From assembly GCA_003344405.1 (NCBI GenBank), contig NOWV01000010.1:62001-126000 (forward strand): a DNA stretch of 64,000 nt, given 5' to 3'. A program made the position numbers and the translations under genes. The stretch comes from Trichoplax sp. H2 (Eukaryota). Under the pieces are notes generated by a model. The model was not told where the DNA came from. It did no database searches and worked only from the letters and a program-made list of their open reading frames with translations. Below are positions 5,263-40,622 of the stretch, piece by piece. Every line of letters begins with the position of its first letter. Position 1 is the first letter of the stretch.

Positions 5263-8116
5263 TCATGTACCCTTGTAGGAACGATTAATGAAATTGTCTA
5301 TCGTTAGTTTTGTGAATAAAAATCGAAAATGAATATCAACTATAGCTGGATTACTGGAAATGTGAAAGTAGAATAATTCAACTAAAATAAGAAGACGCGA
5401 TACAATAAAATGAACGAAGGAAGTTTCAATCGAAAACATTGCTTTCATTCGAAAATACATTCTTACCTTCCTCCCTTTTTTTATGGTTGGATTTTCTCTT
5501 CATTACAAAAATAATGCCTGAAATTACGAGCATAACTAGCACGCAACTTAATCCAACGCTTATTCCAATGATAGATCCACCATCGATATTTGGCAGAGCA
5601 TTTGCAGTCGTTGATTTAGAGAAATCTGAAATTTTTAATGATATACGAGTATGAAGGCTTAAAAATTATATTTATAAAAATATTATTTAAGATCGAAGTA
5701 ATAACTCAATGCATTGAAGCGTACCGGTTGTAACCGCTAATGGATTAGTCATAGTAGGGATTGATGTTGTGGTTGAGATTCCATCGGTAAAAGGATAACT
5801 GACTACAGTCTCAGCACTAGAAGTGCTCTTTAAGGTTGTAGTCGATTCCGTTTTTGGTTCTAGCGTTGTTAGATTATTATGAATGCTTGTAGAGTTATTA
5901 CCTTGTTAAAATGTTTTAAAAATAAGTCATAGTTTCAGAGGCGATATTTTATCGATAAAAATAGCTTTAAAACATACTATTTTCAAATCTTATCGCTAAA
6001 TTGCTATAGAAATAGTTGCTAGTTTGGAGATATCTCCTAGCATTACTTGGTGTCTTATTTTCAATAGTTACGATTTCGTCTGTTCCGGGTGTTTGCGTAG
6101 TTTGCACGTAACTATCACTGGGTGTACTATCATCGCTAGAGTTGGATATAACATTATCGGTACTATCGCCAATTAAAGTCGATGAAGGTGTCGACGGCTC
6201 AGTTTTAGCTGAATTTTCACTTTGCCCAATAGAGACTGTAGCAGTTTCTTCTTCAATATCCGAAGTTGTAAAGCTATCAGTGTATAGCCACGTTGGAGAA
6301 CTAGTAGGTACTGATGATTCTACAGTATGAGTTTTCGTCGTTGAGGCAACTGTAGTAGGTATATGATTAGTTGTTGTAGTTTTGATAGGAGTTGTGATAG
6401 TTTTGATGGGAGTTGTGGTAGTTTCGATGGGAGTTGTGATGGGAGTTGTGATGGGAGTTGTGATAGTTTTGATAGGAGTTGTGATAGTTTTGATGGGAGT
6501 TGTGGTAGTTTCGATGGGAGTTGTGATGGGAGTTGTGATGGGAGTTGTGATAGTTTTGATAGGAGTTGCAGTAGTTTGGGTAGGAGTTGTGATAGTTTTG
6601 ATGGGAGTTGTGGTAGTTTTGATAGGAGTTACTGTAGTTTGGATAGGAGATGTCGAGAATGTTGTTGTACTTTTGGTGACAGTTAGCGCAATAACAGTGT
6701 CTGTTGGATTAGGACCGTAGTTTCCTATCATAAAAATGTGCAGTGATACGAAATATCAGAATTAATGTATACCCAAATATATTCCATCTTTCAACTCAAA
6801 TATTAAGGCAATATTAACTAAAATGATATTTACAATTCCGTATATGATCAGCAAGTTGTTATACCATGTACAACAACTGTAATTTTGCAGATACTTGAAA
6901 TCAATAATTTTAATTATGTACGTAATTTACAAAGGATGATGAGGACGTCAAACTAGGAAGCGTGAGATTTCATTTCATTACCGTACTCTTACCAGTTATA
7001 AACATAGTTCCTAAAGTCCCGCTATCACCAATTCGATTTCTAGCAGACAGAGAGCAGATGTATAGCGTATTCTTTCTAAGACCTTCCATCGTCAGTGATG
7101 TTTGATTTGTTTCTGTGTTAACAAGATGTTGCGAAAGACCTTGTGCCTTACATCTGATTATAAAATGTTGCCTGAAGCCGTTATCGTATCCCGGCTTCCA
7201 GGAAAAATAGACTGAGGAATTCGTAAGGTTCTCAGGCTTAAAAGAAGTAGGAGGCTCCGGTGGGCCTGAAAAAATTACATTACATTGAAGACTATCTATC
7301 GCATTGGTAAATCTACAAAGAATTTATCGTAATCTAATAGAGGTTATTGTTCTTGAAATGTAAAATTGATATCACACAGTAATTAGTTATATCACGACTG
7401 TGTTGCTACTAGTTCATAGGTGCTATTTCGCTAATCTGATTGAATTACACAAGTTAATTGTAATTGAGGGTTTAAATAGTGTGAATTTAGTACAGTTAAA
7501 ATAAATACAATAATCAATCTGCTTCGATATAGTTAATAGATGATAAGTTTTATAGGGAAAGTCGTAATTTAAAAGATTTTACATGCTGCTGTAGGAAAAA
7601 TTGTATTTTGTAACGACTCTCAATAATTACTAGAACTTTACTTTCTTTTTTGCATAAGCTCTATTTAAATTTGCTGTACTTACTCATAACAACGACTGTT
7701 GTAGTTATGACTTTTTCATGGTTTGGTTGATATGAGGCTGTCCATATATAGTTTCCGCCATCGCTGGTGACCAAATTCTTAATGGTTAATCCCAATGTTA
7801 CTTCTGTTGAAGTCTTGTTGTAGAAACTTTTCATACGATTTGATGGCTTAATTTCGCCAGTCATATATTCATTAAAAGGACCAATAATTAACATTAACCG
7901 TGGGAACGGGGACTTCTGAAGTGTCAGTGTCAGTAATTCTAAGTTTCTTCCTGAGTTATCGGTCTTTTTGGCTGTACATAATAAAATTATATCCTCATTT
8001 ATTCTTGCGTAAGTCTTGCCAGATGGCGTCGCTAAAATGGCTTCGGTTACTGGTAAGTTTAAAGCGGCGACATTAAAGAGTAGCAGCATATAGCAAAGCT
8101 TTAGCCACTTAGCCAT
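5263..8116 (-). CDS. Type I membrane protein: signal peptide, Ig domain, FN3 domain, Thr/Pro-rich mucin stalk, TM, short cytoplasmic tail (6 exons predicted)
   Basis: Exons 8116-7684 (MAKWLKLCYMLLLFNVAA signal; Ig with C..DGGNYIW), 7265-6993 (FN3: PPEPPTSF..SVYFSWKPGYDNGFRQHF..LRKNTLYICSLSARNRIGDS), 6724-6047 and 5901-5725 (S/T-rich), 5625-5467 (TM GSIIGISVGLSCVLVMLVISGIIFVM-KRK), last exon ..DNFINRSYKGT* ending 5263. All joins are phase-1 GT-AG. Confidence 0.85.
6368..6655 (-). repeat. Coding tandem repeat (21-nt TTTPIKT-type and 12-nt ITTP units) of the mucin stalk
   Basis: Repeating gggagttgtgat / gatagttttgat units; the 29-aa block TPIKTITTPITTPITTPIETTTTPIKTIT occurs twice in tandem. 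Confidence 0.95.
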
Positions 8117-10086
8117 AGGAATAAAGAGCGGCAATTGATTGCGGAGGCTAACATTGAAAAATGAAAGTTTTAATTTAAATTAATTTAATGACTGCCCTCG
8201 TGCGTTCAATATGGTTGGAAAAAGAATTAAAAGTCCTTTATTCCAAATGTCGTGAGGTACATATCAGTCAATCTGAATAAAGTATTATAACTTAAAATGA
8301 TTTGAAATAAAACGAAATTTTAGTAGGTTTTTAGTAGCTAAGTGACAAGTTGGTATACAAGGACTGTAAAATCGGTATGAAATAAATTATATTGAGCTAA
8401 AATGGCGTCTGAAACTTCTTTTAACCATCAGCATAAAGTATCGACTTCGTACGCTTAAAGGATTATTTTGCGGGGATGCAGCACAGTAACAGCTTGGTAT
8501 AATTGATACACTCGTATTATTTTTATCTTATTTACATTAGCTTCTTGATAACCAATAGAACGGATGACAGGTATTGTTTGCATAATGTATTCTTATCTGA
8601 TGACAACAATATTTGCAAAATAATTGCAACCATGACAATTGAAGTTATTTCATTTGTCATACTGAGTCCCGCTATCGCTTACAGTTTATTGGAAGCTCTT
8701 TATATGTAGATTTATAATTTCATTGTGAAATGTTTTGCGGAATAAAATTTGGCTAAGTTATCAATTAACGGGTGCAACGATTTCTTAAAAATTAATGCCT
8801 AAAATGTAATTTAAATGGGTTAAAGATGAATTTTAAATAATTATCTTTGCAAAATTCTGTTTCTTCCTTCGGTTGATTAGCTTTATATAACAAGTACTGT
8901 AAATTTAATTTTTAGGCATAAGTAGTAGTGCTTAATAATAATTATTCATGTGCAAATAAGCAATTTAATAATGTGCTTAGAGCATCGACAAAGCAACTTT
9001 TATTTTGGTATATAACAAATAGATTCACTGCTTTAATATTTTGGTGTTTAAATGTACCCGGCTTTAAAGATTTATTTTTTAAAGAGTACCGAGATAAGTC
9101 TATAAAAATCTTCTTGGATTTCATTCGAAAATTCTATCATGTCATTAAATTGCATATGTATACCTGTCTATTTTCTTCTTTCCGTTTCATTTCATAATCA
9201 CAGATAGATGCACTTGGCTAATATTATAAAATGCTTAGCTTGTATGCTAATTTACAGAATAACGTGATTATTTTTAATAATTTACTAGGCGAATAATAAC
9301 TTAAATTTACTCCGATTTGCTTCCAGAATGTTCTCATGGCTCCTTTTTTTAATTAACTTTACATCCTTACACCGCAGAAAAGCTACGGTAGTGATATCAT
9401 ACTGAAATTTTACCAAATCAGAAATTGTGATACTTTTGCTAAAATCGCTTAACAAAATAAATATTTCATAGCAAGTAATTGTCATTCTTATGATCGGAAC
9501 TATCATACTTTTAATTAATCGTTACGTATGTCTAACTGTACACGCCCAATTTTGGTTGTGCGTAAAAAGACGATTGACGGACATTTCACCATGACAAATA
9601 GTGATCTTTAATAGTACATAGCGATTATTATTCATTGTCATCTTGTCTAAAGCGATGGATGAAACTTGTAGCAAGGGAGCAGCCCTATACTACAATGAAT
9701 CATTATTATCGTGATTTATCTCATGGATAACATTTCGAAATCTAGGTCTCTAAATTACTCAATTAATTCAAGTAAGTTTTAATATATTTCGATCTAAGTC
9801 TACGATACTTACAATTGCGAAATGCTATTTGTTAGCGTACATGGAGTTCGATTCTAATTATATTTTATCGATTCTTACTACATAATTTCATATACATAGT
9901 ATTAAGATATTTCACAGTAAAAATATTTGGATCTCATATAGATAGTTCAAGCTTTATTAATAACAAGTTGTCATGCAGTGAACAGGTAAATTACGGTATG
10001 TTCTGATTATTATGGTCACCGGAATTTTATAGAAGAAAAATAGAGGTATAAAAATTGGTTGATTTTAATTGGCAATTGATAATAAT

Positions 10087-10568: not shown

Positions 10569-11787
10569 CAAATACATAAGTATATATAAGTAGATAAAAA
10601 TATACTGTATGTAATTGTAATTATGTAACAGCTTCACGTAGATGTACGTCTATAGTATACCAATTATAGAATGTTTTAAATCTTCTGAACGTAGAAAAGA
10701 GCTTGTTCTGGATTTCTTAATCATGGCAGGAGTAAGCAGGCTAACTTAGCGTTTGGCAGTCACCTCATTTTTTTATTTAACATTTTCTTAGGCCCTGTGT
10801 TAAGTTTTCTTGTTAGTGAACCGGAAATTATCAAGTTGCAGAGGCTATAAATGAATGTCGAGCAATATGAAAAAGAAATTTTTCAACAGTTACTATACTA
10901 TTGTATTGTACGTATAAGAGGATGTTCTATGAACCACCAGTGAAACGAGCTAAGCAGCTTGTAGTTTTTTGGCAAATCTTTCGAAACTGAGTGGTAAATT
11001 TGATCTAAGAGGATTGAACTCTGAATTAAACTTGTGAATAAAAAAAAATCATAAATGGATTTACAAAGGTTAAATCCGTATTTTTGCTTAAGAGACAGCA
11101 ATATAATAAAATATTCAGTTAAATCGAGTTCATATCTAATTGAGATACAATGATTCGCATTACGATAGCTTATTACGTCTGCTCTCACTGGCACTGTCAC
11201 AAAAGCTCAAGTTACTAGAGCATAAGCAGGGACTACTAAAGAGAAATTAGTAGTTCCTGGTCTAACCTTCGTTGCTCTCGGTTAAAAAAATTTATTATAA
11301 TAATTATTATTGGGATGCAAAATGCTGTGCCAATAGCAAATCAAAAAATTTGAACTCTCTACCCTTATGTTTGCATAATCGCATCAATAGTACATATGTA
11401 GTGTCTGGTCCTTCTAAAAATAATATAATGAAATAAATTAGATTTTTCTGCTACGAGAGCCAGCTTAATCAAAAGGGAACGGGTAATAAGAATTGAGTCT
11501 AAGATAGCACATCGTAACCTTAGCCCGTAGGTAGAGCTGCAGGCTACGCTCTACGTGTTTTAGTGATGATACAGTAGCAATATCAAGTTCAGCTCAATAC
11601 AGCAAAATGAAAAAAAAAGTGTTACGGTTAATAATAAAGTCTCCATGGCCTAACCATTATAATTTATATATATATTATAATTTATACTATGTTTTACTGC
11701 AATCAAGAAATTTAAATTTCAGAACATCATCATGGTGCTGAGCTGAGCGTAATTTTGTACGGTAAAATACAGTAGAGACCCCTAGAA

Positions 11788-12095
11788 TGTACTGTACTGT
11801 ACAGTACTGTACACTGTATGGTACAGCATGCATACCGAAAACATACTGTACAGCACAGTAATCACACTTGGTCCGTTGTAGAATGTGGAGTACAGTACCG
11901 TAATTATGGACATACTGTACTGTACAGTGTACAGTACAGTATGTATCGTTTATGGTGAACTGTACAGTACTGTACTGTACAGTAAAGTTACTGAATTGCT
12001 TTACTCTTTTTTTACTACAGTACAGTATGTTTTGTTACGGTACTAAAATTTCAGAAGGTTTGTACTGTACCGTAGTGTACAGTACTGTACAGTAC
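11788..12095. repeat. TACAG/CTGTA palindromic simple-repeat array upstream of SMIM7
   Basis: Dense tactgtacagta / tacagtac pentamer units. Confidence 0.9.
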
Positions 12096-13961: not shown

Positions 13962-16900
13962 TTATCTTGCACAAGGAAAAGGGTTCAAAAGGGATTTGCT
14001 CTCCTATTATGGAAAAAGATACGTCTTAGATAGGAATGTTGTATAAATAAATCTAAAGGTGGATTCCATTTGACTTATGCTATATATTTTATACATGAAT
14101 TAACCTTGCTAGCTTTAGGCTTGCAGAAAACATTCCAAAACCTGAGAGTTTCATCGCCAGCACCGGTCACAATAGATTCTCCTTCAGGTGAAACGGACTA
14201 ATAATGTATATAATCAATATGATAAGCAAACATGTTATCAATGGTGAACTAATTATTATTAATTGCACGAGACTTATTGACATATTGACATATTTTCGGT
14301 TTAAGGCATGATATGTTGACTAATTAATAATAGATCATACCAAGTAGAGGACGCGATATGTGTGCCCTGATAGTTCAGCTACTTTGGAGAGAGACGGGTA
14401 TTTCCAAATAACGATATGATTCTTAGAGTAGCCATGTGTACTTACCTGTAAAGCGAATTTACAGGTAGTTATATATGATTGCTGACAACTAATTACATTA
14501 GTTGCTATATAGTACATCATAAATTTTACTGCTTGAAATACTCACCAACTCGTTTGTATACTTTGACCAAGCTAAATTGCATACTTGCGAGCCGGTATCA
14601 ATGCAATTTATTGATTGGTTGGTCAAAATATTTCTAAATCTGATGCAACGATCAGCCGTTCCACCCCCCGAGGCTAAAAGACCATGCTTCAGATATTAAA
14701 AAAATTTCTGACTTAAAATTGTTATTACGAACCCAAATGTTATGGCAAATGTTAACTTTAAAAAGGTCTCGTTTTAAGGTAGTGTAGCCGAATTAATGAA
14801 TCATAAAAATTCGTTTTCCTAACTTGCGGACATACATAAATTTTCGCAAAATCTCATTGCAGAAGAGCATTTAAATTAGCAAAGACTTCAATATAGCTTG
14901 CAGTTAAAAATTCACGTACAGATGAACAACGAATGCTGATAGTTATATTTAGTAATGTAGACTCCTCGACATCCTGCTTATATCTCGAACCTGATGAGGT
15001 GACCATGCGATTGCTTTTACGGCAGCTTCATGGTCAGCGTACGTTTGGATAGGAGTCTCGGCAGACAAGTTCCATATAAATAGCTAACAGAAAATGTACT
15101 GATAATTATAATCGTATTCGTGATCGTAATATTTATTACATAAATTAAAATTTAAAACCTTATTATCATTTCCTCCAGACGCTAAATATTGTCGGTCAGA
15201 CGACCACTTTAAACCACAAACCTTCGAATAAGTGAGTTATCATTATTAGATTAACATTTAGGAAGACGGAATATTGCAAGAGATGGTGTTACTGCAAGAT
15301 GAAGTGTAGTACTGCACCTCCTGTTTATGAGCCCTTAATTTTCGTGTAATTGAACATGGCGTTCTAGATCAATCAAATAAAGTTGTAATGATTCTTGCTA
15401 GCGCTAATGCCATAAACACCTAGAGTAACCTCTTTAAAATTTGGATATTATTTATTGATATAGGAAATAAGTAGTAACCTCAGATCGCGCTGGAAGATAC
15501 ATTTATCCCGGCTACCGGAGTATAGCAAATCATTATTCCATGCGAGTGTGCCTGGAATATAAATTGAATCCCGAATTTTAGCCGAATCTATTTACAAATT
15601 CAACCAAAAGGCAATATAAATAGCATATATGCCATATTTTAGAGATCAACGGACCAACTCGTGCAGTATGGCCATCTAGAAGAGCAATAAGTCTGGAGAC
15701 AGTTACGTCCCATATATGAATGTAGCCTCGCTGAGTTCCTACGGCAATGTGATTGCCCTGTAAAGTAAAACCATGCGTGCTAGTTCAATTAGTTTAAATC
15801 ACTATTAAAAGAAATTAGTGTATACTTTTTCAGTCCAGGAAACAGACGTAACCGAATCTCCTTCACTTTGGAAATCACATAACTTAGTAACCTAAATGAA
15901 AAACATTTCATTGTAAATAACACCCCGTTAATCGAAACAATGTTTTGGGGTTAAATTCAGTTGAATTTTACATTAACAACATTAATAAAAATTGTAGAGT
16001 CGGTTACCTGCCCGTTATTTGCACTCCATAAATACACACACGTTCCGAGACCAACACTCAACACGTTTTGTGGCGACCAGTCAACTAAATTTAAATAGAA
16101 GTCATCCTGAAAGAGTAGAGGCGGAAAGTTATTGTTTGGTTTTTCCGGGTATCTTTAACTCAAAGTAACCTGCAAATCTGGTGCATCCAAAACTTTATAC
16201 GGTGCCTTCGGTATTTTTCTAGGTGGCTATATCCGTACCAAAAAAATGCAGCTTAACGACTCATTGTGAAATAGGATCATAGGCTAAACTATTGAGCGCT
16301 ATCGACCATGTAAAGATAATTTCGGTCTAACCTTAGTTGCTGAACACAGCAGACTTTGACTATATAGGTAGATAATGAGCAATACAACTTAAAATTTAAA
16401 CTTGAAGCATAAACGTAATAGGAATTGTACAGTACCTATCGATTCCCAGAGGCGACATTGCATAACCAGCAATAAGCTTTTTTGAGTCATCAAATAATTT
16501 TCTTTTAGCAGGGGATTGATACTATCATAAACAGGTTATCAGGTATGTCGCCATTATTAAATTAAAAGATTATCAAAATCTCATGTTGCCGTTAGATAAA
16601 GGTACTCACTTCGAAAAGGTTGCAACTGTTTTCTCTTAAAGTGCTGATCTCTCTCGGTGTTGTTTGCTTCGGTTAAGAGATGTTTTAATAACATATTAAA
16701 AAATAAGCCAAAGCAAACCTGCAAGTTCGCTAGTAAACCATGTTATGTCTTACCTCCGTTCTTGTTCCTAACACTTCATTCGCTATTACGCAATTGTACA
16801 TCTGATTTTCTTTACATTGAATATACGTTTAAGGAAATCCGTGAGTAGATACATGTGATTCAAGGTTTAGTGCATTAAATACGTTTCTGTTTACTATTCA

Positions 16901-17702
16901 AGAAGGCTGCCCTCGCAATAGTAACATTAAGCTTTGCTTAAGCCGAGTAAAGCGCAGAGTTACAAGAAACCACGGATCTCTAGGGACCCGTATAAAAAAC
17001 TGATATAGCATTTACATTCGCACGTTCTCTCAGGAATATTATATTATTTACGGACCGTAGTTATAAACATCATCAAAACCACAAACCTTTACTAGATTGC
17101 GCGTTGCCATCTGAGAATACTGTATTATTTCTTTTTTGGGATTCCTTTGACTGTATTTAGTTAGTAATGAAAATACCAAAGACAGATTGAAATTCCGTTA
17201 AAATTAAAATTATTTAAATTGGTAAATACACCAGTAATAGCTATGAAAAGCTGTTTATTGTTGAAGTGGATGAAGAAAGGTACAAGGTACAATTATACTG
17301 ATACTGCACATCGCATAGCATATTAAACAGACAGTGATTTCACCTGCAATAAATTAAATTTTCCGTTCCAGTCGGATGATGATCGATCAGGAATGAAGCT
17401 GGGTACCCATGGGAATCATGAGATGGTTAACAAGACAAGTTTGTTAGCATTTTTGTGAAATCTTAAGACGAAATATATATATTACAATGCATAGTATACC
17501 GATTACAACACTTTTCTTTGGAAGGCAGTGGTGACATCATCGTGTGCTCTGCTCCGACCTGAAAGGTTAATTAATCAGATAGAAGTCATTAGTAAAGATG
17601 TGCGCGTCAATGAAAATGGTAACTGAAGTTTTAGTCCAGGTTAGAGAATACCAAAGTAGAAGATGGACTATTCATCAAACGCTTATTGTAGTTGGTATTC
17701 AT
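13962..17702 (-). CDS. FZR1: Fizzy-related / Cdh1, APC/C WD40 co-activator (multi-exon)
   Basis: Start MNTNYNKRLM; RFIPDR C-box region; RKIPKAPYKVLDAPDLQ|DDFYLNLVDWSPQNVLSVGLGTCVYLWSA; ASGGGTADRCIRF; STHGYSKNHIVIWKYPSL; SPEGESIVTGAGDETLRFWNVF; last exon 14003-13962 ESKSLLNPFPCAR*. Confidence 0.95.
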
Positions 17703-19468: not shown

Positions 19469-20005
19469 AGTACCGCATACACTATAGTACAGTATACTGT
19501 ATAGTACAGTACAGTATATCGTGCCAATGTTGCCAACCTCTACTGTACCGTACTGTACGCTTCAAGATAACTTACTGTACAGTATTGTACTGTACAGTAT
19601 GCAGACGGCTGATCCTGATTTTTCTAAATTAACAGTACTGTACAGTACTGTACTGTACTGTATGTACTGTACAATAGTACATTGAATCTTATTATTGGTT
19701 ACTAAAGCTCTTCTTAGAAACAGCTATATAAGATCGTCAATGTTATTCAAAATAGTACTAGTAGTAGAAAACCGAGTCAGAAGATCCATACTAAGCAGTC
19801 ATTTTCGATATTGACGGTTTCGTTTGGTGAAAGAAGTCCGTCCGTCTACAGTATATTAGAGACCTTTACTAAATCTACAGTACTGTACGGTACTGTACAG
19901 TACAATATACTGTACATGTACAGTATACAGTATTGTACAGTACAGTACATTATGATAGTACTACGGTACAGTGTACAGTACAGTACAGTACAGTACAGTA
20001 TACCA
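19469..20005. repeat. TACAG/CTGTA arrays in the divergent FZR1 / receptor-PTP intergenic region
   Basis: Two blocks (~19469-19680 and ~19875-20005) of tacagtac repeats, followed by an AAT microsatellite at ~20010-20045. Confidence 0.9.
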
Positions 20006-20102
20006 TAGCAGTAATAATAAAGTAATAATAATAATAATAATAATTAATTATAATGTAATTTTATGCACGCACTATATCTTTATATCCTCCACTTCGGCGA
20101 AG

Positions 20103-23100
20103 ATGTCAAGGATTTTAAATATTGGCTTTGGTTTAGCCTTTATTGTAATCGTGTCCATTACAGGTTTGTTAATAATTATTATCGCTAATATGGCTGAGAT
20201 GGAATCGTAGACGTCTAGCTATTCATATTTCGGTGTGGATTTCATTTGATAAATAACCAGTTTAAACCGGCAAATGTGCAGGAGTGCAGGTGTTTTTTTT
20301 TAGCTATGACTGAACCTGCAAATGCTGAAGATATCGTCTTTTCAGTTTCTTAAAACTTACTTAATTAAAAATCCAGGCTAAAAGGCTTAGTCAACGTTCG
20401 AATATGCAACACTGGTGTTGATTAACACCGTAGCTCGGAGACGCTTATTACGACATTGAGTAATATGGTAGACGTAGTCGTTGATTAGTGGGATAAGACA
20501 TTTTGTTTTGATAGTTAATTGAACTTACGCATACTGTAAACGAATTTGCACATAATATTAGTATCAATAATAACGCCATATAGTGAAATGCAAGAAAAAG
20601 TCGTGGCTGTATTATTGACAATGAATATCGGTATACAGAATGAAACATTTTACGGGAAGTTGATCTAATTTTACTACCTATAGCTAATAACAGCCTGTAC
20701 ACGAGCCGTCCAGTAAATGAAGGATACAGCACTGTAGTAGCACTGTTCATGATTTCTGGACTTTAAACATTACAGTCTATTTATGCCTGTAGGCAAGTTA
20801 TTTTGTGCGCTTATACTCTTCGGATGATCGCCTATCGTCGTAAGCTACTAATTTTGAATCTCTGAACGCTGCACTTCTGCAAGTACGATCTTACTGTGCC
20901 GACAGATTCATGTTGATCCTTGTGCTGTACTAGTAGCTAGTTGTCAAATGACTATACCGATTAATTTTGATGATAGTTTTTCAATCTGCGGGCAAGCACT
21001 GTACCGTACCGGGGACAACGAGTGAAATACGTGGAGACGCGGAGTAGTGTTTGAGTAGATTATGTAGTTATGAATGACTGGATGAGTGGTCTGTACTGTA
21101 AGTAAGGTAGTACTGTACAGTATGTGCTCTTAATATAACTGCAAATGGAGTAGCGCCATAATTTACGTAATTTTACGTATCAAGTAAAGCACAATATTTA
21201 TCCATCCCCTACGACTTACTGCTGATAGGTTCAAGTCATTGACTACCAAAAAAGACCTTTTTCTAGCAGTCCTGGTTAATCCTGCTGTCCCACTGGTAAT
21301 TGTGGTGTAATTATTGTAAAGTAGATTCTTCTTATCCTGGACAAACTGCGAGCTATATTATACGTGTATGTTCCTTATATCAGCATTAACAGTAAATTAA
21401 TCATGAAGTTTTCTGTACTGTAGTATTCATACTAAAGTATAATGTAACGCTATCCTTCGCACAGTAGGCGACGGTGCTGCTTCTAGTTGATCCCAATATA
21501 TTTCATAACGTATGTTATATCGCACGGGGTTAGACCAGCGCTGGTGAATTGCTTTGCGTTGAATAATGTCGAAGAACGTTGATTTTCCCTTGATACTCTT
21601 TGAATTTATATGTTCTGTAGCTGCATCATATCTTCAATTAACCTAAATATAAATTTGCAGAACTGTATTAGTCCTTTTTTGCGCTTGGATGCAGCAGATA
21701 ATATTTCCGAAGTAAATAATACGCGATCTGGAAAATCAGTTATGATCTTACTGACAACTAATATCCCTTTTGGTTTTATTATAATTATTCATCAGGACAT
21801 TGTACAAGAGGTCTCTCTTTGTATTGTTCTTATCGCCTGCCGATGGGCTTTGATGAGGATGACTTTTACTCTATTAGATGCTGGACTAACAATGATAATA
21901 CAAAGTTTACTTGGTCTAGAGTTTCATCTCGTGTATCGCCTTTTCATGTCAGCACGGATCAGTATCAGATACAGAATAAGTCCGGTGAATCAACATTAAT
22001 CTTGCCGTGGAATTCTCTAAACGATTTTTATCGTTACGCTGGTGTATATGAATGCCAAGCAACAAGCACAGCCAGTAATTCTCCCCAAAGGAAGACTTTA
22101 TGGGTTGGAGTTACTCATTCTGCATGTAAGGGTATATTTAATTTCGACCTTTTAATTAATGCATTAACGATTTCAGTTGTGATATATTTAGATCTTAGAA
22201 GCCGTTAACACCTCTGTTTTTAATTATTTATTTAGCTCCTGTACAGCCATCAATTATTTCACAAGTTGGCTATGTTCGCGATACCTTAGTGTTAACCACG
22301 TTATCGAATAATGTCGTAACTTGTAATTATATATGGTACCACAACGGCTCACGTTATACCCGATGTGACAATGCTTGCAACTGTAGTTTTGATAGCTTGA
22401 GATTACAAGATGCCGGAGTTTATGAAGTGATTTATCCGGCATCTGACAAATCTAATATTACTGGTGCTTTTATGACATTAACTGTTTTAGGTAAGTTACG
22501 CGTACAGTACATCGGAAATATATACCTTGGAATCTCTGCTCTTCTGGTATTAGTTTATTTTATTCTTTACAGAGAAAAAATGTAGCCAAAATCAAAACTG
22601 CCTCAACGGAGCCATCTGCATGACAGACAATAGTTGCGGTTGCCTTCCAGGCTTCAATGGTACTTCGTGCCAGACAGGTTAACTGTAAATCTACAAATGT
22701 CATTCATTCTGTTATCACATGGTTAAATTGCAACTAGATACGCTTAAAGCTTATCATTAAAGGACAATCTCTATTATTATTAGCTTGCAGTCTTCCGTTT
22801 CGTTGTGGGCCTGCATGCCAATTTGCTTGTCAGCCAGAAAGTGTGTACTGCAGTTCCGATATGTATGGGTGTATGTGTCCATCTGGAGTAACTGGCATTA
22901 GCTGTAAAACTGGTAGGTTTGAGGTTTTTTGAAACTGCCTGTAGAGAAACAGGCGGTATTAAATAAATTATGTAATACTCATTTCCTGTCGTAAGAATGA
23001 AGGTTATATTTTAATATTAGATTCGTGTCCTGCTGACAACTATGGACCAAATTGTCAACTGAAATGTAATGGGTGTAATAATCATGGAAGCTGTCAGTCA

Positions 23101-26100
23101 AAGACGGGTTGTTTGTGCCAGTCTGGATACTCTGGAATCTACTGTGAAGAAGGTTATTATTATTTTCTGTGTTAATAAAAAAATTACTGCTGCGAAGACT
23201 GTTTCTTCGATTTCTAAATCCTAATTAATTTAAACAGTTGCAGGCGGTTCCGTAGTTGTTATAATTGGTGTCGTTGTCGCAATTATTGCTGCTGTTAGTT
23301 TAGGAGTGATTGCTTACATTTGGTACAGGTATCAAACGTAGTAGATTACAATACTGAAATTGTTTATCAACTGTTTCCAGAAACCAAATTAATGCTAATT
23401 TATTTTGCAGCCGTCGCCGCGCTAGAGCTTTAGCTAATATCAAATCACCAGATCCTGTCGTCATTGTTGATGCATCTGGTGATAATCCATCGTCCTTAGA
23501 TACTAATTTAATCCGGTCACGATTAGGACAGTATAAATACGTAGTATCCAAAGGTAACTGTTACACGGAGAAAAGTTGCATAATTTGGTCGATACGGCTT
23601 ACAGTAATACCTCTATGTCGCTTGTACATTTTAGCGCAAAAGGCATCATTGGTTCAAAATATTAAGATCCCGACTAAACCTATAATTGTTAAGGACCTGC
23701 TTGATCGTATTAACGCTTTGAAGGAAGATTCGGCTCTTGCTTTAAAGGAATTTGAGGTGAGTAAATTTGGAACGGTTGCTTTGATATAAAGTGGCATGAC
23801 TGCATTCATTCTCCTTGCTCCTATAGTCCATCCCTCCTTGTAAAGAGACCCATGCTATTGCAGACATGAAAGGGAACGCGAAAAAGAATCGTTCTCAAAG
23901 TGTTATTAGTTGTACGTTTATTAATTATATAATATACAGTAAACGTCCAATTTTTTATTTACGATATCGGTGATCCTATTCATCAGATTAAATGATTTAT
24001 TTCCTAGATGATCATTCAATCGTCACAATCGGCGATGGAGGAGTCAATTCGTATATTAATGCTTCTCATGTTCATGTTAGTAAAGATTCCTTATAATGAT
24101 TCATAGTAGGGAACAGAAAGCTTTTTCTAATGCTTTACTGATTTAACAGGGATACATGAAACCTAATGGTTACATAGTAACTCAAGGTAATTGCAATTTA
24201 TCCTGGCCGCTAAAATTAAATTGCATATATGGCTTGAAGATAATTTCGAGTTATTAATCAGTTAATCGTAAAGATGTGTAGATTGTTAGATAATATTTCC
24301 CAGGATTAGCTAAATTTAGAACTGGCTATGAAATTAGGTCCTCTAAAGTCAACATGCAATGATTTCTGGACCATGGTTTGGGAAAAGGAAACCTGTGCAA
24401 TAGTGATGCTCACAGAGTTATCTGAGAAGGACGAGGTTAATTATTCAAAAGGATTTGATTCTTAGGTTTATAAATTTAGGCCAAATTTGCCTTACGTGTA
24501 CCTGTTAAATTTTTTCAGCAATTATGTTACAAGTACTGGCCAGAAGAAAAGGATACTTATGGTAATGTATGTGTCACTCTAGAGAACGTAAGCAAGAGGA
24601 GCTGTTATACAGTCAGAACTTTTCATTTGCAAAAGGTAGTGTATAACCTTTAATACTGTTACGTGACATAAACTTTCTCTAAATTAGTATTTGCTCCAAA
24701 ACTATGCAGGTTGGAGAAGTAGAAAAGCAAGAAGTGAAACAGTTTCACTTCACTGCTTGGCCCCACGGTGGTATACCTGAATCCAGTACAGGGCTTTTTA
24801 GATTTAGGTCACTGGTACATGCTTTTAACCCCTCCGATGCTGGTCCTATCGTTATTCATAGCAGGTATGGCATATTACCTATACGCCTTTTGATCTTATC
24901 TTAAGAATGGTGATTTTCATTTATAGTGAAGGAAGTAGTCGTTGTGCTATGTTTGTTGCACTCGATATCAATCTTGACCGCGCCCGCAAGCAAGGTGATA
25001 TTGATGTTTTAGAAAACGTTGGTTTGATGTCGCATCATCGAAAAAACATTTTAGTCCGTGTTGTAAGTGACGTTGTTCTTCATAGATAGCTTTGTCTGAA
25101 CACCACCATGATCATTTGTATTTAAGGCCAGTAAGAATTTTTGTTTCTGTATTGATCTTTCATTTCAGAATGAATACTTATTTGTATACGAAGCAATACT
25201 TGATGCTCTAATACGAGGCAATACGCAAATGTCGCTTAAGAATTTGCAAACCTTCGTAAGCCGGGCAGATACATCCGAATCGGGCTCCAAAAACAATCCT
25301 TATACCATCATGTTTCAGGTAACATACTAAATGAATTAGATTAGTATCGAGATTGCTATTAGTATATGCGAAATCAGCCGATGAATATTTAAGCTACGTT
25401 TCGTTTTGGTAAAGTGCTTACGATGTCAGGAGGGAGAACATGATGATTTCGCTGGAGCTTCGTTATCTGCAAATGAAAACAAAAATCGTTTTCCTGATAT
25501 CTTAGCTAGTAAAGTCCTTAAGTCTAATATTCTAAAATAGGCAGTTTTCATTTATATTTATCGTTGTATGAAAGTGTATCAGCGTTAATAATTATATATT
25601 TTATGACTCAGGGGATAAATATAGGGTTAAACTTTCAAGCAGTGACAGCTCAGACTATATAAATGCTGTATTTATTGACGTAAGTTTTGTGATGATGCTG
25701 TACTATGCAACATTTATTATGCTGCTAGTTGATGTGATGTAATATTAGCAAAACACTTATTACAGAGTTACTTAAGAGCAAGAGAATTTATTGTCACCCA
25801 ATATCCACTACCGAATACTATAAATGATTTTTGGAAATTAATCATGGAACAGAACGTTGCGTGTGTTGTTACCTTGGGATCATTTAGTAATCATCCGGTA
25901 AACTTATTTGATTTATGTTTTATTGAAAATACATGTAGATAGCTAATCATTTTTATAACATTGGTGCTTCTATAGCCTTATTGGTGGCCTTCTAATAAGA
26001 AGCACGACGTATACGATAACATTAAGGTTGAGATTTTGGAAGTAGCGACGGTAGATGACCTAACTATAAGACAATTAAAGGCAACAGAGAAGGTTTAGTA

Positions 26101-26751
26101 ATTCCATTTACCAGTGATTCGATTTATTCATGCGTTTATTCATTACGATGTTATCTGATTATCTTTTCTTAGAATCATTCTAAAACTAATATAATGAGCC
26201 AATTTCAACTCAGTGGTTGGGAAGATGAGGATAAAGCGCCAGCCCAAGCTTCTACGATTATTAATTTAGTAAATCGTGTGCAAGAATGTATAAAAACAGT
26301 TCGCGAACCAGGACCTATTGTTGTTCAATGCCTGTACGTTAATATTACAAGCACAATACATTTTTACATTAATTTGATGTTGAGCTATAGGTAATGCTGT
26401 CTTAGTTTCATTTTATTGTTTATAATTATAATTCGCGTATGTCATTAACAGTAATGGCAGAGGACAAAGTGGAACTTTCTGCACGATTTACTCTGCGTTG
26501 AATACGGCGATTGAAGAAAAGGCTGTTGATATTTATTCTGATGTCCTTTCAATGAGAGTAGCTAGACGAGGATTAGTTCAGTCAGAAGTAAGAACTTATG
26601 CTGCGTCTTTTGAAGAGCTGATTTATCAGCCGAACTATTTTCAGTTGCTGATAAATTTCCATTTTGAAATGAATTAAATTTATTTTAGGAGCAGTTACGA
26701 TTCTGTTTTGAAGTTGTCGTGAAATACACTCAAGATACTGGATTGCTGTAG
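20103..26751 (+). CDS. Receptor-type protein tyrosine phosphatase-like protein: signal peptide, 2 Ig, 3 EGF (Tie-like), TM, tandem PTP D1-D2 (both degenerate)
   Basis: Exon 1 20103-20163 (signal [21 protein letters not shown]); Ig exons ([20 protein letters not shown]); three Cys-rich EGF exons ~22573-23151; [29 protein letters not shown] motifs: [38 protein letters not shown]2 [36 protein letters not shown]. Stop TAG 26749-26751. Confidence 0.92.
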
Positions 26752-27594
26752 CGCGTTTAGGATAATAATGAAGTTTTTGATTTTATGAATAACCAGCTAT
26801 AATAGTTAAGATAACCATATCGTGTTTTATCAGTAAAATCGTCACAGAAAACATTTTTAAGTGCTGCTGCTTACGCTTAATTATTTCGTGCAAAAATTCT
26901 TGTGCAGCATATGTGTTATATAGGTAATGTCAAAGGCAGGTGTTTCGGTTAGGTTTATATATCTTCGGCGGATAACGCATCGTCCGGCGATTACGAAAAT
27001 TTAATTGGTGTTTTACTGTAGCACAGCTCTTTGCTCTTTTTTGAGTTTATTTGTGACCTACATGTATTGTGTATCACTATAATACATAGAAGAATAACTT
27101 TACTTATATCGTCGTAAGTTGAAATGTTAGCGGAAATACAGGAACAGAATTGTTTCTATATATCTCATACAATGACATTAATCTCGATGATAGTACATAA
27201 ATTTTAAATTAAGATCCAATATAAGGATTAAATATAGTAATTGATTAATTAAAATTGATGCTATGGATTGAAAACAGTCAGATAAGCCCATGCCGTTCAA
27301 GTTTATAAGTTATATTTTTTATTTCGTACTTAAAATGCCAATATCTAAAGATAAATTAATGTTGTAATTTCATATTGCCTAGTTATGCAAATATATTACA
27401 AATTCACTTATATTATCTGAATAAGTTGTGGTGTTTTTAATATACTAAATGATCATAATTATTAGCATTTTTCTATTGTCTGTAAAAATTAATTGTACTA
27501 TACAATCTATATGTATGCAACCGTTTTATTTTTGGTCAATTTTTAAAGTTAATTTTTGGTAATTGAATCAACGATTTTTCGTGAACTTCGGAAA

Positions 27595-32400: not shown

Positions 32401-35400
32401 TCATCGGTCATTATCTTATTTTCGAGAATGCTATCGCGTACCCTAGTTTTTAGAATGTGTTCTTAGCAGCATTAGCTTAGTTCAGTTCAATAACAATAAA
32501 GATTTAGTCCAATATTCTAGCTTTATCGGATTCGTCTGAAAATTTCTGGCTAATCTTCCTTGTTACAAAGTAGAAGTATTTCGAAACTGTAACAGGATTG
32601 CAAAATTCCCATTCTTAGAGCCGTCTCATTTTTTTATACTAGATATCAAAGGATCAATGATAGTAAATGAGCAAAAGGAGCAAAATGACTGTGATGTGGA
32701 TGATGGAGGCTCTACCAAGTCTGTTGATCAAGGTGAAATATGTTGTATCTATCTGTAATTGGCATGCATTGTGTTCATATTGTGCATGGGAAATCTCATT
32801 TTATGCATTGTGTACAAATAGTTTTGTGTCGCTAGAGGTGGCTATGTAGTAGATATCAAGTTGGTTATCTTATATAATAACTAGTTGCTTTGCATTCCTT
32901 ATACCGTATCCAGCAGTTTGTGGAGTTGCAAACCCTGAAACGCCGATAATGAAATTAAGAATATGATAAAACACGCATTTACAGATTAAGACTCTAGTAA
33001 ATCCTTACTTGAAAATTCTTTTAAAATTTAGTATTTAGAGGCGAACAGAGAAGTATCTTTACGGGAATTTATAGCGATTCAGAAGAAAGCGTATTGGCTT
33101 CGTCGGCGGATAGGTCTGTTGATTGGTATTCCTGTATAAAAGAACATCTACATCATCAATTACATATTCGTCAACTTTAGTAGTTAAATGCTAAATGTCG
33201 GAAGAGGCTTCAGCCTAATGGAGATTACGAAAGATTAAATACAATGGATAATCACTTTTCTATATTAAAGCTTAAATCTGTGTGATTATAATTCCTTAAG
33301 CATTTATTTAAGGATATAAAGCTAGAGTTTGCAAATAAGTCTTAATGATGTGCGTACGCATAATTTTATACATACCGTACAGTGTACGAGTTCACTTGCG
33401 GAAATGATATCAGATATTTTTTGGGCTTATAGCAGTGAAAGCGATAACTCTGAAGAGGAGAATTATAGTGCTGGAATTGATGACTTTATAGAGGCCGCCC
33501 GTGAACGTCGTAGAATGATTGCGGATTCTACAGGTAGTAATAGATAGGCTTAAATTAGTACCGATAACAGTTGGCTTACCTGAATGAAAAGTAGGATAAT
33601 TTAATGATTGTCTGTTAATATTATAAGGATTGGTAGATCTCGTAGTGCGGTAGACGAGAGATGTGTAGTTTTGTTAGCGATTGATCCTTAGTATTAGAGT
33701 CGCATTGTAGGCTAATGGCAGCGAGGACAAGCATTTCAGCAGGCTCATAGTAGCTTGGTTTGTCGTTACAAATTTCGATTTACAACAGTGTCAAATTGGT
33801 CCTGTCTTGGTGATTAATTTAATTTGAACTGGTTGTAGGCCTGTACTAATTCTATATAATCAATCTGATTGAAAACATTGATAAATTTGTTGAGTAGATG
33901 TGGATATAAAATGGAATGATTGATTAATTTATGCCATTAGAAATTGATAGACAAGATGTAGGAGTTGTCGGTCTCACTGAAAACTTGACATCATATTGTA
34001 CTTGGTACGACGGATTCTATGTTAATAGGGGGAGTATTGTCTACGAAGTTGATTGGTCCTGAATGCTTGTTAGTAGGATGTGCTACATTTGAAAGGGCTT
34101 ACAGGTATGGTAACAATTGAACGATTTGTACTGTGCAATATTGCTTCATAGCTGTTGAGGTAATCTGCTCAAAGCTACTAGTTGATTAATTATTGCGGCA
34201 TACGCGGACAATTTGCACTAACAATTTGTGTATTAAGACATTTATCTGGAGATTATTTATTCGAGAGCACCTAATTTAAAAAACGGAGGCATTAGTGATA
34301 AAGTAAATCGAAAGTAAGAACCTTATTCATTTCTTTACAGTTTAAATTAATAACATGAAGTCTTGTAATACTGCACGTTTTGTATATTGTATTTTTAGGA
34401 GTGTAATGCTAATTGCGATAGTTACTTTATTTACAGTTGACGGCTTGTGAGAGGGAAATTTCAGTAAAAATCTATAACTTGCAAATGGTTGGAAGTATCT
34501 TATTTAACCATTGGTCTATTGATACGCTAGTTTTACTTATAATTAGCTTGATTTTATATCGCTTCGCTAATAAAAGTATTATATTAAACATTTCAACTTT
34601 TTCGTAATATTTATGACAATAAGCAATGTTTAATGCCATAGTGTGATAAATATGCTCCTGTTATATATACAGTATAATTATTATTTACAACAAGTACTAA
34701 TCACGAAACGATTTCGAGTAAAATTGAATTTAATTACTGATTTTGGTTAACCAAATTTCTACAACGGGAAATTATCGTTTCAAGAATAAGTACCATTCTA
34801 ACTCTATTGATATAGCTTCTTATATATCTAGTTTGTTTACGACACCCAAAATAATTGAGAAGAAATAGCTGAATCAATCATTTACCCATTAGACTTAGTA
34901 TTAAAATGAATGAATCTCTACGATTACTATAGCTTCCTACGAAACTGAGATTGGTAAACTTATGGTATTGGCAACATGACAATACTTGTACTAGCTGTCA
35001 TTAATAATTTATAAATGACTCAAAACTGTTGACGAGGGCATGCATTATGTTATTATACACCGCTCGTGCATGATGTTGTGGATTGCATTTGGTTACGTGA
35101 TAATATAATATTTGATAAGATTAAAGTACAAAATAGCCTGCGATTAGTACCGTTCACAGCAACCTGGACCAGTTTAAATTTCAAAATTTTAGCGTAAATG
35201 CACTTCTCATAGCTTTGCAAGGTAATGCTGTTCTTTGGGTCATGAAATATACTTGAAATTGTTACAAAGGAATGCTAAATTATCAAGCGTGTTAATGATG
35301 TTATTACCTACGAGCTTAGTTTCATTTTTTAATGTAGACGAGGAAATGAGAGAGTTGGACAGATTAGTTTGCTGGCTGTGAGAAATAGATATAGGCGATG

Positions 35401-38400
35401 CCATATTGGAAAGTATCTGCTGGAGGTAATTTTTATATGCAATTCTTTACGCCAGCATTGTCATGTTATATGCGAGCGAGATGTATATGCAACTTTTTTA
35501 TTGCCTTGAGATCGTTTGTGAAAGAGAGTAAGTATGACCATAATAGAGTGTAGGTCAAGTCAAATGGCTGAATAGAATTAGAAATGTTGCTAGCTATATT
35601 TAATTTTTATTCGATTTAAAATATAAGAGTTACTTGGATGTAAGTTTTATTTAATATCCCAGTTGAACTGTCGATGAAGATGTACATGCGTGATATTGCA
35701 GTAGAGTATTTGCTTACCAATAGAATATTCCAATGAGTTTACGATTAAGTTTTCATTTGACTGTCTTGAGGAATTATTATTGCAAAGTAAATTAATTTTT
35801 TATGTTATATGATTATTTTGTGTATTTTTCTTGTAATTTATCGGTGAAATTGTTTTAATTGATAGATAATTATGAATGTGAATATAATGGGGGAATACGA
35901 TGCGATCGCAGCGTACGTAGATGACGGTGCCAAAGATTTCTTTTTAAATAATGGATTCACCGATGATGTCTTGCTAAACAGCCGGTACAAGTATGTGCGA
36001 ATGCAGTGCAGTTTAAGAGATCCATATGTATAATACTTTGAGACGTTTAATTATTTAAGACCTTTAGTATGTAGAATCATCAAGCTCGATATTTTTCAAA
36101 CTATACATAATATAATTAATGAATTATTGGCCAACCTCTTTGCTCGTAGTTGTTTAGTTTTTGGAAAAGGTTGCTTTTTACAGGTTAAGGCTTATGAGTA
36201 TATGTCCATGAGGCTTTATTTTGAGTGCAGTAGTAACATAATTAATTACTGTACTTATATACTGTAAGTGAAGTCTCTTGATCAAGTGGATACAAAATTA
36301 ACTCAGTGTTCAAGTGGTGGTAGTTGTGTTAAAAATTTAATCCTTTTGGAAGTACTGTACTTTATGAAAAATGTACATTGTAGTAAAGTTAGATTTATAG
36401 ATTTCTATTGACATGGACTTCTTTTGAAATTTTGGTTTGTTACCGTCTGTATCACTAAAGGACAGTCAATTTATTGTGATAGCATACTGTACTTTTAAAT
36501 TAAATTATTATTATAACTCTTTCTTTACCTTATTAGGAAGTATATCAATCACTGGATTAACAGTACATTGATGTGCTACTTGCCAATGGTTTCAGGTAGA
36601 GGAATAGCTAGATTGACAGTAAACAGCAGTGTAGGCGTAAAAATTTACATTGAACAGCAACATAGGTTTTAAAAATGACATCAATACGAAAGAATTAATT
36701 ACTTTAAAGTAGAACAATGTAATGCATACCCTGTATTGTCGCAACGTTCATTGTAGGTGTTTTACCGTTCGATAACAATTTGTATTTGACTGAACGCTTT
36801 AGCTGTTAATATAAACAACGCCGGTAGTCTTGATGAAATTGTTGAAGAATGTGAAAAATGGTGAGTTAGAAAAAGGATTATAGTATTGATAGAACGTGTT
36901 GATTTAGTGTTGAAATTGTAGTTGTAATTCGATGTAATACTGGATATATAAAAAACGGGTATACCGATTTTAGGAGACAGAAAAGTCTCGAGGCTTATCA
37001 AATGCAAGCTGGCTGCATGTTCAAGATGGTACATGAAAACCATCAGCTTAGGAAAACGGTCGATAAATTGAAGATTCTTTCTCTGTGTTTATTGTATATA
37101 TAAATTCTTGTAATCAAATGCATCATAATAATAATAATAATAATAATAATGTGCCATTTGTCTTGGAAATAACCGTTATGCTATGAAATAGGTAAAAGAG
37201 CAGACTGAGTTGATCAAAGATTTGGAAGATCGCTTAAGTAGAAAACAGCAGCAATTGGAATATATTGGTATTACTTACTATAGACTAGTACTGCATCAAT
37301 ATGGAATAGTGGAGCAGGAATTAACTTCAATGTTGTGATTTGAAATGTAGAAAAAGAATTTACTAGGTATCGTCAGAAAGTTGCAGTAGGTAAATGCACA
37401 TGTTTGGTTTGGTAGTTATCATTGCTCGTAATACGTTTTATTTGAATTCGGTTGGATGTGTCAATAGAAAGTTGACATGGTGGTAAGAAATGAAATTTAT
37501 TATGATGTATTTCTGTTGCCAGATTCTAGAGAGTTGTCAAGAATGACTGAAGATGTAGAAAGGCTACATTTGAGTTATAATAGATCACAAAGTATGACTG
37601 ATTAGTTTTGGGTGTTGATGGAAATATTAATATAATAATAGGTAATTATAGAAATTTGTAGCTGTCCATTGAAGTAAGGAAATTTTTTGTTGATATGGTT
37701 TCGCAGATTTTGTTGGGAAGTTTGGTTGTAGAGATGAAATTCTGAAAGAATTACGGTATCCAGTTGAGGAATTTGTAAAGTGTATGGAACAATGTATGCA
37801 ATCTGGTAGCAGCGTTGAAGTACAAGAAATCTATCAGGTTAAATATGGATTATTATTTTTCTATTAAACGACGAGATTTCCATCGCCTCTTTTATATAGA
37901 GAATATGTGATTGTTGTTTTCTACTACGGTGGGGCAGGAAATAGACTATAAATGGTAGTTGTTATTATTATTATGATTATTTAGTCCTAGAAGATGTCAA
38001 CTGCTAGTATTATTATATTATTATTATTTAAGAATAGCATTGACATAGTAGGGTATGTGCTTGGTTTATAGGTTTCTGAGAATACTAAATCAAAAATTCA
38101 AAATAATTTTGATTCTTGCGTGAACTCTTTTGGAGATAATGCTTCTGTGCTAACGTTGTATTATTGTGGAGGTAAAAGCGGCTTAAAGGGAATATTAGAA
38201 AATGGTTTTACTACAGAAGGTAAAAGCTATGTAGTAGGACACGATAAGACAATCGTGCATACCGTTAGTGTAGTTAGCTTAAGGTAATAATTGATGCTGT
38301 GCTTTTAAAACAATTAGGTTGTCCAGTACGGTACAATAGAGAATTATGAGCTAACTTAGTTAGTCCTAGTTGATGTCATTGCTACCCAATTGTATTTTAT

Positions 38401-40455: not shown

Positions 40456-40622
40456 GTACAGTACAGTGTACAGTACAGTGTACAGTACACGAGGACTTGT
40501 AAAGTACTGTACAGTACAGTATAACAATGTTACAGTACGGTACAGAGCAGCTCTGTATTGGCAGGTACTGTACTGTACTGTACTGTACGAATACTTACCA
40601 AGTTACAGTACTTAGTACTGTA
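40456..40622. repeat. TACAG/CTGTA array upstream of U6
   Basis: gtacagtacagtgtacagtacagtgtacag.. and gtactgtactgtactgtactgtac. Confidence 0.9.

Follow-up and report, generated by a model that had tools for sequence, protein, structure and literature searches.

Tie kinases are receptors in which a head of two immunoglobulin (Ig) domains and three epidermal growth factor (EGF) repeats is followed by another Ig domain, the third, and by three fibronectin type III (FN3) repeats before the membrane (PMC8294587). Tie2 is a receptor of vertebrate blood vessels. Its second Ig domain is the angiopoietin-binding domain: angiopoietins bind it via their fibrinogen domain, and the strand Phe161-Glu169 carries the binding (PMC8294587). 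Tie kinases are already known outside vertebrates, as sea urchin SpTie1/2 (PMC12113024). Protein tyrosine phosphatase (PTP) domains are characterized by four motifs: CX5R, WPD, KNRY, and the Q loop (PMC7320164). Placozoans such as Trichoplax rank among the simplest animals. The window analyzed here is a 64,000-nucleotide stretch of Trichoplax sp. H2 DNA (assembly GCA_003344405.1, contig NOWV01000010.1, positions 62,001 to 126,000), and all positions are window coordinates on the + strand unless marked otherwise. It contains a gene at 20103-26751 for a predicted receptor that joins a Tie-type head to a tail of two PTP domains (D1 and D2) with altered catalytic motifs.

Gene model and transcript

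The receptor gene comprises 24 exons that form one open frame of 994 residues in a three-frame reading of 20090-26990, and 23 of 23 introns have GT-AG borders. The predicted protein consists of a signal peptide, Ig1, Ig2, EGF1-3, a transmembrane helix, PTP D1, and PTP D2. Its signal peptide, single transmembrane helix, and paired D1 and D2 match the layout of tandem receptor-type PTPs (RPTPs). Exon 1 at 20103-20163 holds the start codon and signal peptide (hydrophobic N-terminus, phase-1 donor) and takes the gene beyond the 21796-23330 interval of the original prediction. The joint between exons 1 and 2 is not one of the 15 RNA joints listed; we infer this link, with one contig (X8 contig 7) beginning 55 letters upstream of exon 2 and an exon-1 bin depth of 55 letters.

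The five head exons (Ig1, Ig2, and EGF1-3) are phase 1 at either end. Ig1 (21796-22125) has a weak I-set match (E 0.007) and lies within both the Tie-head profile match and the Tie2 superposition (model range 1-301). Ig2 (22236-22490) has no Pfam match and scores 38.5 on a Tie-Ig2 profile. EGF1 (22573-22677; PF00008, E 5e-5) has six cysteines, the first pair present in Tie EGF1 being absent. EGF2 (22784-22912) has no Pfam match and carries the Tie-type YC..D.YGC.C signature, with one Tie cysteine missing and another gained. EGF3 (23021-23152; PF07974, E 2e-5) aligns to Tie2 and adjoins the single transmembrane helix at 23238-23328 (hydropathy peak 3.1), whose flanking joints are present in 4/4 runs. 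A basic stop-transfer segment and juxtamembrane linker follow at 23411-23553 (exon model, RNA joints). D1 is encoded by exons 9-17 (23635-25318) and D2 by exons 18-24 with the stop codon (25415-26751); both match PF00102 and are predicted to be inactive.

Contigs of four runs from four studies (X8, X9, X13, and X14) were aligned to 19800-27200. The splice joints listed, 15 of 23, agree with the gene model in all four runs, including the joint from EGF3 to the transmembrane exon and those onward to the PTP exons. In three of the four runs (X8, X9, and X14) a single contig reaches from Ig1 through the final exon; in X13 two contigs do so. Head and tail are one spliced transcript. The original prediction held that the third Ig domain and the FN3 repeats are absent and that the transmembrane segment follows directly; this is borne out, because EGF3 is spliced directly to the transmembrane exon in 4/4 runs, which leaves no hidden Ig3 or FN3 exon. 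Five coding differences were found among the runs (three silent, one Glu to Asp, and one Ser to Pro), and the catalytic motifs are untouched.

A protein search with the Ig1 exon identified P0001, Trichoplax adhaerens TRIADDRAFT_57823 (XP_002113914, UniProt B3S1N2), as the same gene, with one substitution over the aligned residues. P0001 lacks exon 1 and the first 36 residues of the present model and departs from it at two splice junctions; at both, the joints in the RNA favor the present model. Its public label is uncharacterized protein or tyrosine phosphatase, and the head is unseen in routine annotation because Pfam at E 1e-5 reports PF00102 alone. P0002 and P0003, two exon fragments without a name, share 69% and 74% identity with the receptor and keep its cysteines and core motifs, which suggests that they come from an ortholog in another placozoan. 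A scan of metagenomes gave 138 pattern matches, none of which was this probable ortholog.

Tie likeness of the head and motif loss in the tail

The original prediction described the ectodomain as a Tie/Tek-like Ig-Ig-EGFx3 unit, and the Ig2 and EGF peptides that it quoted all lie on the + strand where it placed them. When the ectodomain is compared with PDB sequences, three Tie2 chains come first (E 2e-15 to 4e-15), followed by SCARF1 at E 0.008 (17 matches to E 1). The outcome named beforehand as contrary, best matches to generic MEGF/laminin EGF repeats or unrelated Ig domains with no preference for Tie, was not what this ranking returned. Searches by structure, described below, likewise place Tie2 first.

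A protein search of 1.84 billion representatives yielded 212 matches at E 0.001, of which the best 150 are listed. A Tie-head hidden Markov model (HMM) of 342 nodes was built from 36 of the listed matches with placozoan rows excluded; its seeds were picked by likeness to the query, which introduces a mild circularity. The receptor scores 130 bits on this HMM in a continuous match over nodes 32-337 of 342 that takes in the five domains in their order. The highest score among MEGF-type arrays is 102 bits, confined to EGF nodes. On an HMM of Ig1-Ig2 only, the receptor scores 51.5 bits; the best of 12 other proteins with Ig domains scores 36.6, and shuffled sequences reach at most 10.3 bits (487 reported of 500). 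The Ig2 score of 38.5 is the top of all open frames scanned, versus 25.3. Five proteins (P0016, P0038, P0056, P0060, and P0075) match over the Ig2-EGF coordinates, but their HMM scores are at most about 100 bits, gained mainly at EGF nodes, and they were excluded from the Tie heads. Word-indexed protein searches that used the head as query returned P0001 only (1/20 and 1/458 candidates) and are too insensitive for 25% identity.

An AlphaFold model of P0001 residues 1-301 was built from 44 alignment rows (predicted local distance difference test score 81.6, predicted template modeling score 0.81). Foldseek with this model gives template modeling (TM) scores of 0.71-0.76 for three Tie2 rows and at most 0.24 for the others among the matches listed. 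VIA ranks Tie2 first among 48,161 chains (Z 22.9, root-mean-square deviation 2.7 over 256 residues); the next chain is a single Ig domain at Z 10.4. Identity to Tie2 in the structural alignments is 21-24%. By language-model features in the ESM Atlas, the first match is an echinoderm-rich cluster in which 12% of members carry Ig_Tie2_1 (0.95), and the next scores 0.79. Taken over the five domains jointly, the case for homology between this head and the Tie head is strong, and the model makes it very probable that the head folds as a compact Tie2-like unit.

The tail has a PTP fold, in line with the phosphatase of the original prediction, but catalytic motifs are lost in both D1 and D2. In the motif table, D1 reads HSSEGSSR, WPH, and KNRS, has no Q-loop Gln, and retains only Arg of the active-site residues; its P-loop also carries Glu. 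The altered codons are at 23893-23895 (KNRS), 24764-24766 (WPH), and 24860-24862 (Ser for the catalytic Cys). The Ser codon is the same in P0001, and no alternative occurs among the letters listed at the catalytic codons in the four runs. D2 has the P-loop QCLNGRGQSG, which keeps its Cys and has Gln in place of Arg at 26465-26467, together with a WED loop. Cys and WPD are kept in 19/19 other D1 domains aligned and in 5/5 other D1 exons found in the same genome. Judged by these motifs, both PTP domains are very probably inactive, making the receptor a predicted double pseudophosphatase.

The D2 P-loop is R2B-like, but the PTP tree puts the long tail branch on the LAR/PTPRE side. This tree has 18 rows, without CD45, PTPRG, and PTP69D; a Glandiceps protein with one domain and two near-duplicates were left out. 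The PDB ranking for the tail has the LAR family first with the tandem and R2B first with single domains. Branch lengths are long for both the tail (2.19) and the head (1.98).

Tie-type heads on other tails

A second Tie-type head lies about 90 kb away on the minus strand of the same contig, outside the window (G000:C2, about 177790-171100 for the whole gene, with the head itself at about 177750-176300; L027:295-1786, L026:5100-10000). Its exons encode Ig1, Ig2-EGF1, EGF2, and EGF3, and it scores 186 bits on the head HMM, which makes it better conserved than the receptor's head. Against the PDB, Tie2 comes first at E 2e-7, tied with WIF1. After it, in the same orientation, lie Ig3, a Ser/Thr stalk, and exons with matches to HRM, GAIN, GPS (E 2e-11), and 7tm_2 (E 5e-4). 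The second head probably belongs to a Tie-headed adhesion G protein-coupled receptor (GPCR), with the link from head to seven-transmembrane (7TM) region drawn from colinear exons. The two placozoan heads are 24% identical to each other, a distance that points to an early duplication or to rapid change.

Genome searches with the EGF2 exon, a scorpion head, the GPCR head, and a Tie2-like head found no third Tie head; the last three also missed the window's own head. Scans of 32 stretches beside kinase matches (from 149 to PF07714), which cover part of the kinome, revealed no Tie-headed kinase, nor was a Tie head found in five stretches beside other PTP genes; the best EGF there scores 7.1 bits versus 17-22 for the receptor's EGF exons. 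A PF00147 profile search of the genome was blank, as was its control, and is uninformative.

In other animals, Tie heads were counted among the 150 listed matches with a cut-off of 200 bits on the head HMM. At least 56 matches pass: 13 with a kinase tail, 7 with a PTP tail, 1 with a secretin-type 7TM tail, and 35 with no recognized tail, many of them fragments. P0123 has a partial Tie head and a PTP tail. Thirty proteins were looked up (three without a name). PTP tails occur in Acanthaster, Patiria, Antedon, Apostichopus, Glandiceps, two Branchiostoma species, and the scorpion Centruroides; kinase tails in Diadema, Anneissia, Saccoglossus, and Branchiostoma; a 7TM tail with a fibrinogen C domain in B. 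lanceolatum; and no recognized tail in Strigamia, Ciona, and hagfish. None of the 30 was named as cnidarian, sponge, or ctenophore. The Tie-head RPTPs are XP_022101762 (Acanthaster), XP_038066639 (Patiria), XP_071950746 (Antedon), and XP_071810992 (Apostichopus) in echinoderms, and XP_035698254 and XP_019645297 (Branchiostoma), XP_067124638 (Centruroides), and XP_077981809 (Glandiceps) in other animals. They are annotated merely as PTP kappa/T/mu/delta/U/F-like. The pairing of head and tail is not unique to the placozoan receptor.

Some of these proteins are unusual in their own right. P0031 (XP_077981809, Glandiceps talaboti) has a Tie head and an FN3 stalk, and its only PTP domain is D2-like with the P-loop HCLNG; it is possibly a further catalytically odd Tie-head receptor. 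P0136 (CAH1242711, Branchiostoma lanceolatum) is one model that combines a Tie head with a fibrinogen C domain, Ig domains, and a pair of GPS-7TM units; either a single chain unites a receptor head with an angiopoietin-type ligand domain, or the gene model is a fusion. Tandem pairs of Tie heads, whole or partial, occur in P0005, P0006, P0054, P0067, P0082, P0111, and P0146, with PAN domains in P0005 and P0006, and the head therefore also duplicates within chains.

Closely related heads on different tails are evidence of exchange. The heads of kinase P0043 and PTP P0083 are sisters (100/100) and 83% identical, with a further 830 ectodomain residues at 65%. Kinase P0042 and GPCR P0136 also have sister heads (100/97; 73% identical), and kinase P0052 and PTP P0123 have 540 residues in common at 70%. 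P0042, P0043, and P0052 are called amphioxus-type by their likeness to named Branchiostoma proteins rather than by record look-up; we also infer the vertebrate labels of P0009, P0055, and P0143. With stretches 65-85% identical, the amphioxus-type pairs look like recent tail swapping or paired receptors. A single clade of all bilaterian Tie-head PTP tails, a group named after the tree was seen, is rejected by the approximately unbiased test (p-AU 5.5e-5), and the head therefore joined PTP tails at least twice. Grouping the placozoan tail with six R2B-side Tie-head tails gives p-AU 0.044 in the 18-row tree, where its long branch is placed elsewhere.

Shuffling of the head among tails is supported, and the swap between kinase and phosphatase is shown for amphioxus-type proteins. 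The original prediction proposed that phase-1 exons carried such a swap: the phase-1 exons and the amphioxus-type exchanges hold, and an exchange in placozoans is not shown, since searches of limited reach found no Tie-headed kinase in this genome. The Tie head appears to be an old, swappable module, not exclusive to Tie kinases. More tentatively, and with considerable doubt, the head may have arisen ahead of the split between placozoans and bilaterians, as a mobile recognition module carried by phosphatase-type and adhesion-GPCR receptors, with Tie kinases arising later by exon shuffling. Invertebrates would then have a paired-receptor system in which the head sits on opposing tails (kinase, active PTP, dead PTP, and 7TM), and fibrinogen-domain lectins could be ancestral ligands that became angiopoietins in vertebrates.

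A literature search returned no account of a Tie-type head from placozoans, or of one joined to an RPTP or an adhesion GPCR; most subscription journals lie outside its coverage. Stevens 2010 reportedly treats sea urchin SpTie1/2 and D'Aniello 2008 amphioxus kinases. Byrum 2006, on sea urchin phosphatases, and Chen, Dixon and Manning 2017, on the phosphatome, reportedly cover neighboring ground and may mention such receptors. The present results extend the Tie2 ligand-binding fold from deuterostome Tie kinases to an animal without vessels, on phosphatase and adhesion-GPCR tails. The origin of angiopoietin-Tie signaling thereby becomes testable, in terms of the first tail and the pre-angiopoietin ligand of the head. 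They also indicate a group of Tie-headed RPTPs, apparently without a name, in echinoderms, hemichordates, amphioxus, and a scorpion that standard domain annotation misses, and add a predicted receptor double pseudophosphatase of probably independent origin.

Function, ligand, and comparison with known receptors

The receptor is rather probably a functional, non-catalytic type I receptor, whose stalkless head would bind a non-angiopoietin partner at the membrane and whose dead tandem tail would scaffold or sequester substrates of active RPTPs. The head would represent a phase-1 exon cassette joined repeatedly to kinase, PTP, and adhesion-GPCR tails, and in all likelihood it would sit directly on the membrane. 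Its partner could be a cell-surface, matrix, or secreted molecule, probably engaged in cis or across narrow cell contacts. The tail, which by its motifs very probably lacks phosphatase activity, may serve as a scaffold or as a decoy, retaining molecules that are substrates or partners of active RPTPs in the animal. A precedent is PTPRU, for which a decoy or scaffold role of a receptor pseudophosphatase has been described (PMC7320164).

Several points weigh against this interpretation or against the Tie likeness of the head. The scaffold or decoy role is drawn from the PTPRU analogy, and direct trapping of phosphotyrosine is disfavored by the Glu in the P-loop and by the loss of the KNRY Tyr. 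Run X8 is recorded as RNA; X9, X13, and X14 were guessed to be RNA, yet they are spliced. AlphaFold was trained on Tie2 structures and its alignment held Tie-like rows, which makes the fold match partly dependent, and the ESM Atlas's own model reaches a TM score of only 0.42 to a Tie-1 cluster. The top non-placozoan raw score among the 150 listed matches belongs to a laminin-EGF array, P0004 (98.8 bits versus 91.9 for the first Tie head). Ig1 alone does not stand out on the Tie HMM (12.1 bits versus 10.5 for generic Ig), and EGF2 alone, at 19.2 bits on the Tie-EGF2 HMM, is not above generic repeats. The head tree has 3/24 branches starred, is mostly unresolved, and gives neither a root nor a direction of shuffling.

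It is unlikely, though still worth weighing, that the head receives a secreted fibrinogen-domain (FReD) protein as its ligand, such as an intelectin-like lectin. The Tie-FReD pairing would then be ancestral, and the gene would function in the sensing of microbes or in removing ligand as a sink. As many as 31 intelectin-like FReD proteins, which are secreted, are reported from placozoans (PMC6321704), and this idea is also favored by angiopoietin binding to Tie2 Ig2 and by P0136, with its Tie head, fibrinogen C domain, and adhesion-GPCR tail in one chain. However, P0136 could be a fused gene model, and the placozoan FReDs lack the coiled coils for clustering, in an account that does not mention angiopoietin (PMC6321704). 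In the alignment, the counterpart of Phe161-Glu169 in placozoan Ig2 is shorter and unlike the Tie2-like rows, and the strand is not conserved in aligned invertebrate heads either. Because the binding strand is not conserved and placozoan FReDs are intelectin-like, angiopoietin binding by the placozoan head is not supported. Of the original prediction's claim that the ligand-binding module is older than blood vessels, the presence of the fold in a non-bilaterian is supported and the angiopoietin binding is not.

That the receptor is a decaying duplicate of a once-active Tie-head RPTP, now without function, is improbable. Such decay would fit the long tail and head branches, the erosion of all four D1 motifs, and the missing stalk. 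However, 994 codons and 23 introns are intact, the transcript is spliced in 4/4 runs, four of the five run-to-run coding differences are silent or conservative, and the probable ortholog fragments, at 69-74% identity, retain their cysteines and core motifs.

An active tyrosine phosphatase that opposes a Tie-like kinase with a common ligand is very improbable. It would be in keeping with the amphioxus-type ectodomains shared between kinase and PTP tails and with the retained D1 P-loop Arg and D2 Cys, but the D1 nucleophile is Ser in the genome, P0001, and all four runs, D2 lacks both Arg and WPD, and no Tie-headed kinase was found beside the 32 kinase matches. Equally hard to credit is a convergent Tie likeness, with two generic Ig exons beside three MEGF/SCARF-type EGF exons: the P0004 score, the ordinary Ig1 and EGF2, and the head tree would allow it, but the continuous five-domain match, the Ig-only margin, the whole-unit superposition on Tie2, the language-model clustering, and the second, better conserved head in the same genome speak against it.

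Elsewhere in the window, a gene at 5430-8120 (-) encodes a signal peptide, Ig-like and FN3 domains, a long Thr/Ser-rich repetitive stalk, and a transmembrane helix (domains by eye). Exons at about 14300-17300 (-), divergent in direction from the receptor gene, contain WD40 repeats and presumably belong to a fizzy-related/Cdh1-like gene. We take the exons at about 33300-39000 (+) to be those of an acetyltransferase-domain gene, those at 49000-51600 (+) an OGFOD1-like oxygenase, and those at 55000-55500 (-) a PSMG3-like chaperone; exons at 61500-62200 (-) and 63100-64000 (+) are presumably EBP2-like and WDR36-like. A dispersed low-complexity repeat of short TACTGTACAG-like units occurs at 19470-20010 and also, for example, at 11690-12030, 40290-40600, and 47160-47460, as well as in loose read ends. 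The DxxLL motif at the extreme C-terminus of the receptor (26734-26748) resembles an endosomal sorting signal, and may be a chance match.

Compared with Tie2/TEK (PDB 2GY5, 4K0V, 9LV4) and the invertebrate Tie kinases such as sea urchin SpTie1/2, the receptor shares the Ig1-Ig2-EGF1-3 order, the Ig2 end motif, the EGF2 signature, and the predicted fold. It differs in its six-cysteine EGF1 and its unconserved binding strand. The Ig-Ig-EGF3 unit is present, whereas Ig3, FN3, and a kinase domain are absent and the tail is PF00102 twice; the receptor is not a Tie family member. MEGF10, SCARF, and Draper arrays are long series of EGF repeats with eight cysteines each and have no Tie-type Ig pair, whereas the receptor has three EGF units behind two Ig domains.

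The bilaterian Tie-head RPTPs resemble the placozoan receptor in having a Tie-type head, one transmembrane helix, and a PTP tail, most with a CxxG-type D2 P-loop. Unlike it, they have FN3, Ig, or TSP stalks, and D1 is intact in 7/8, which gives those of echinoderms, amphioxus, and scorpion an active-looking D1. Human PTPRU, a member of R2B, has an ectodomain of MAM, Ig, and FN3 domains. It is a receptor with inactive D1 and D2 and altered KNRY and WPD motifs (PMC7320164), as predicted for the placozoan protein. PTPRU keeps its Cys, whereas in the placozoan receptor the Cys itself is replaced, and the pseudophosphatase state probably arose independently of PTPRU.

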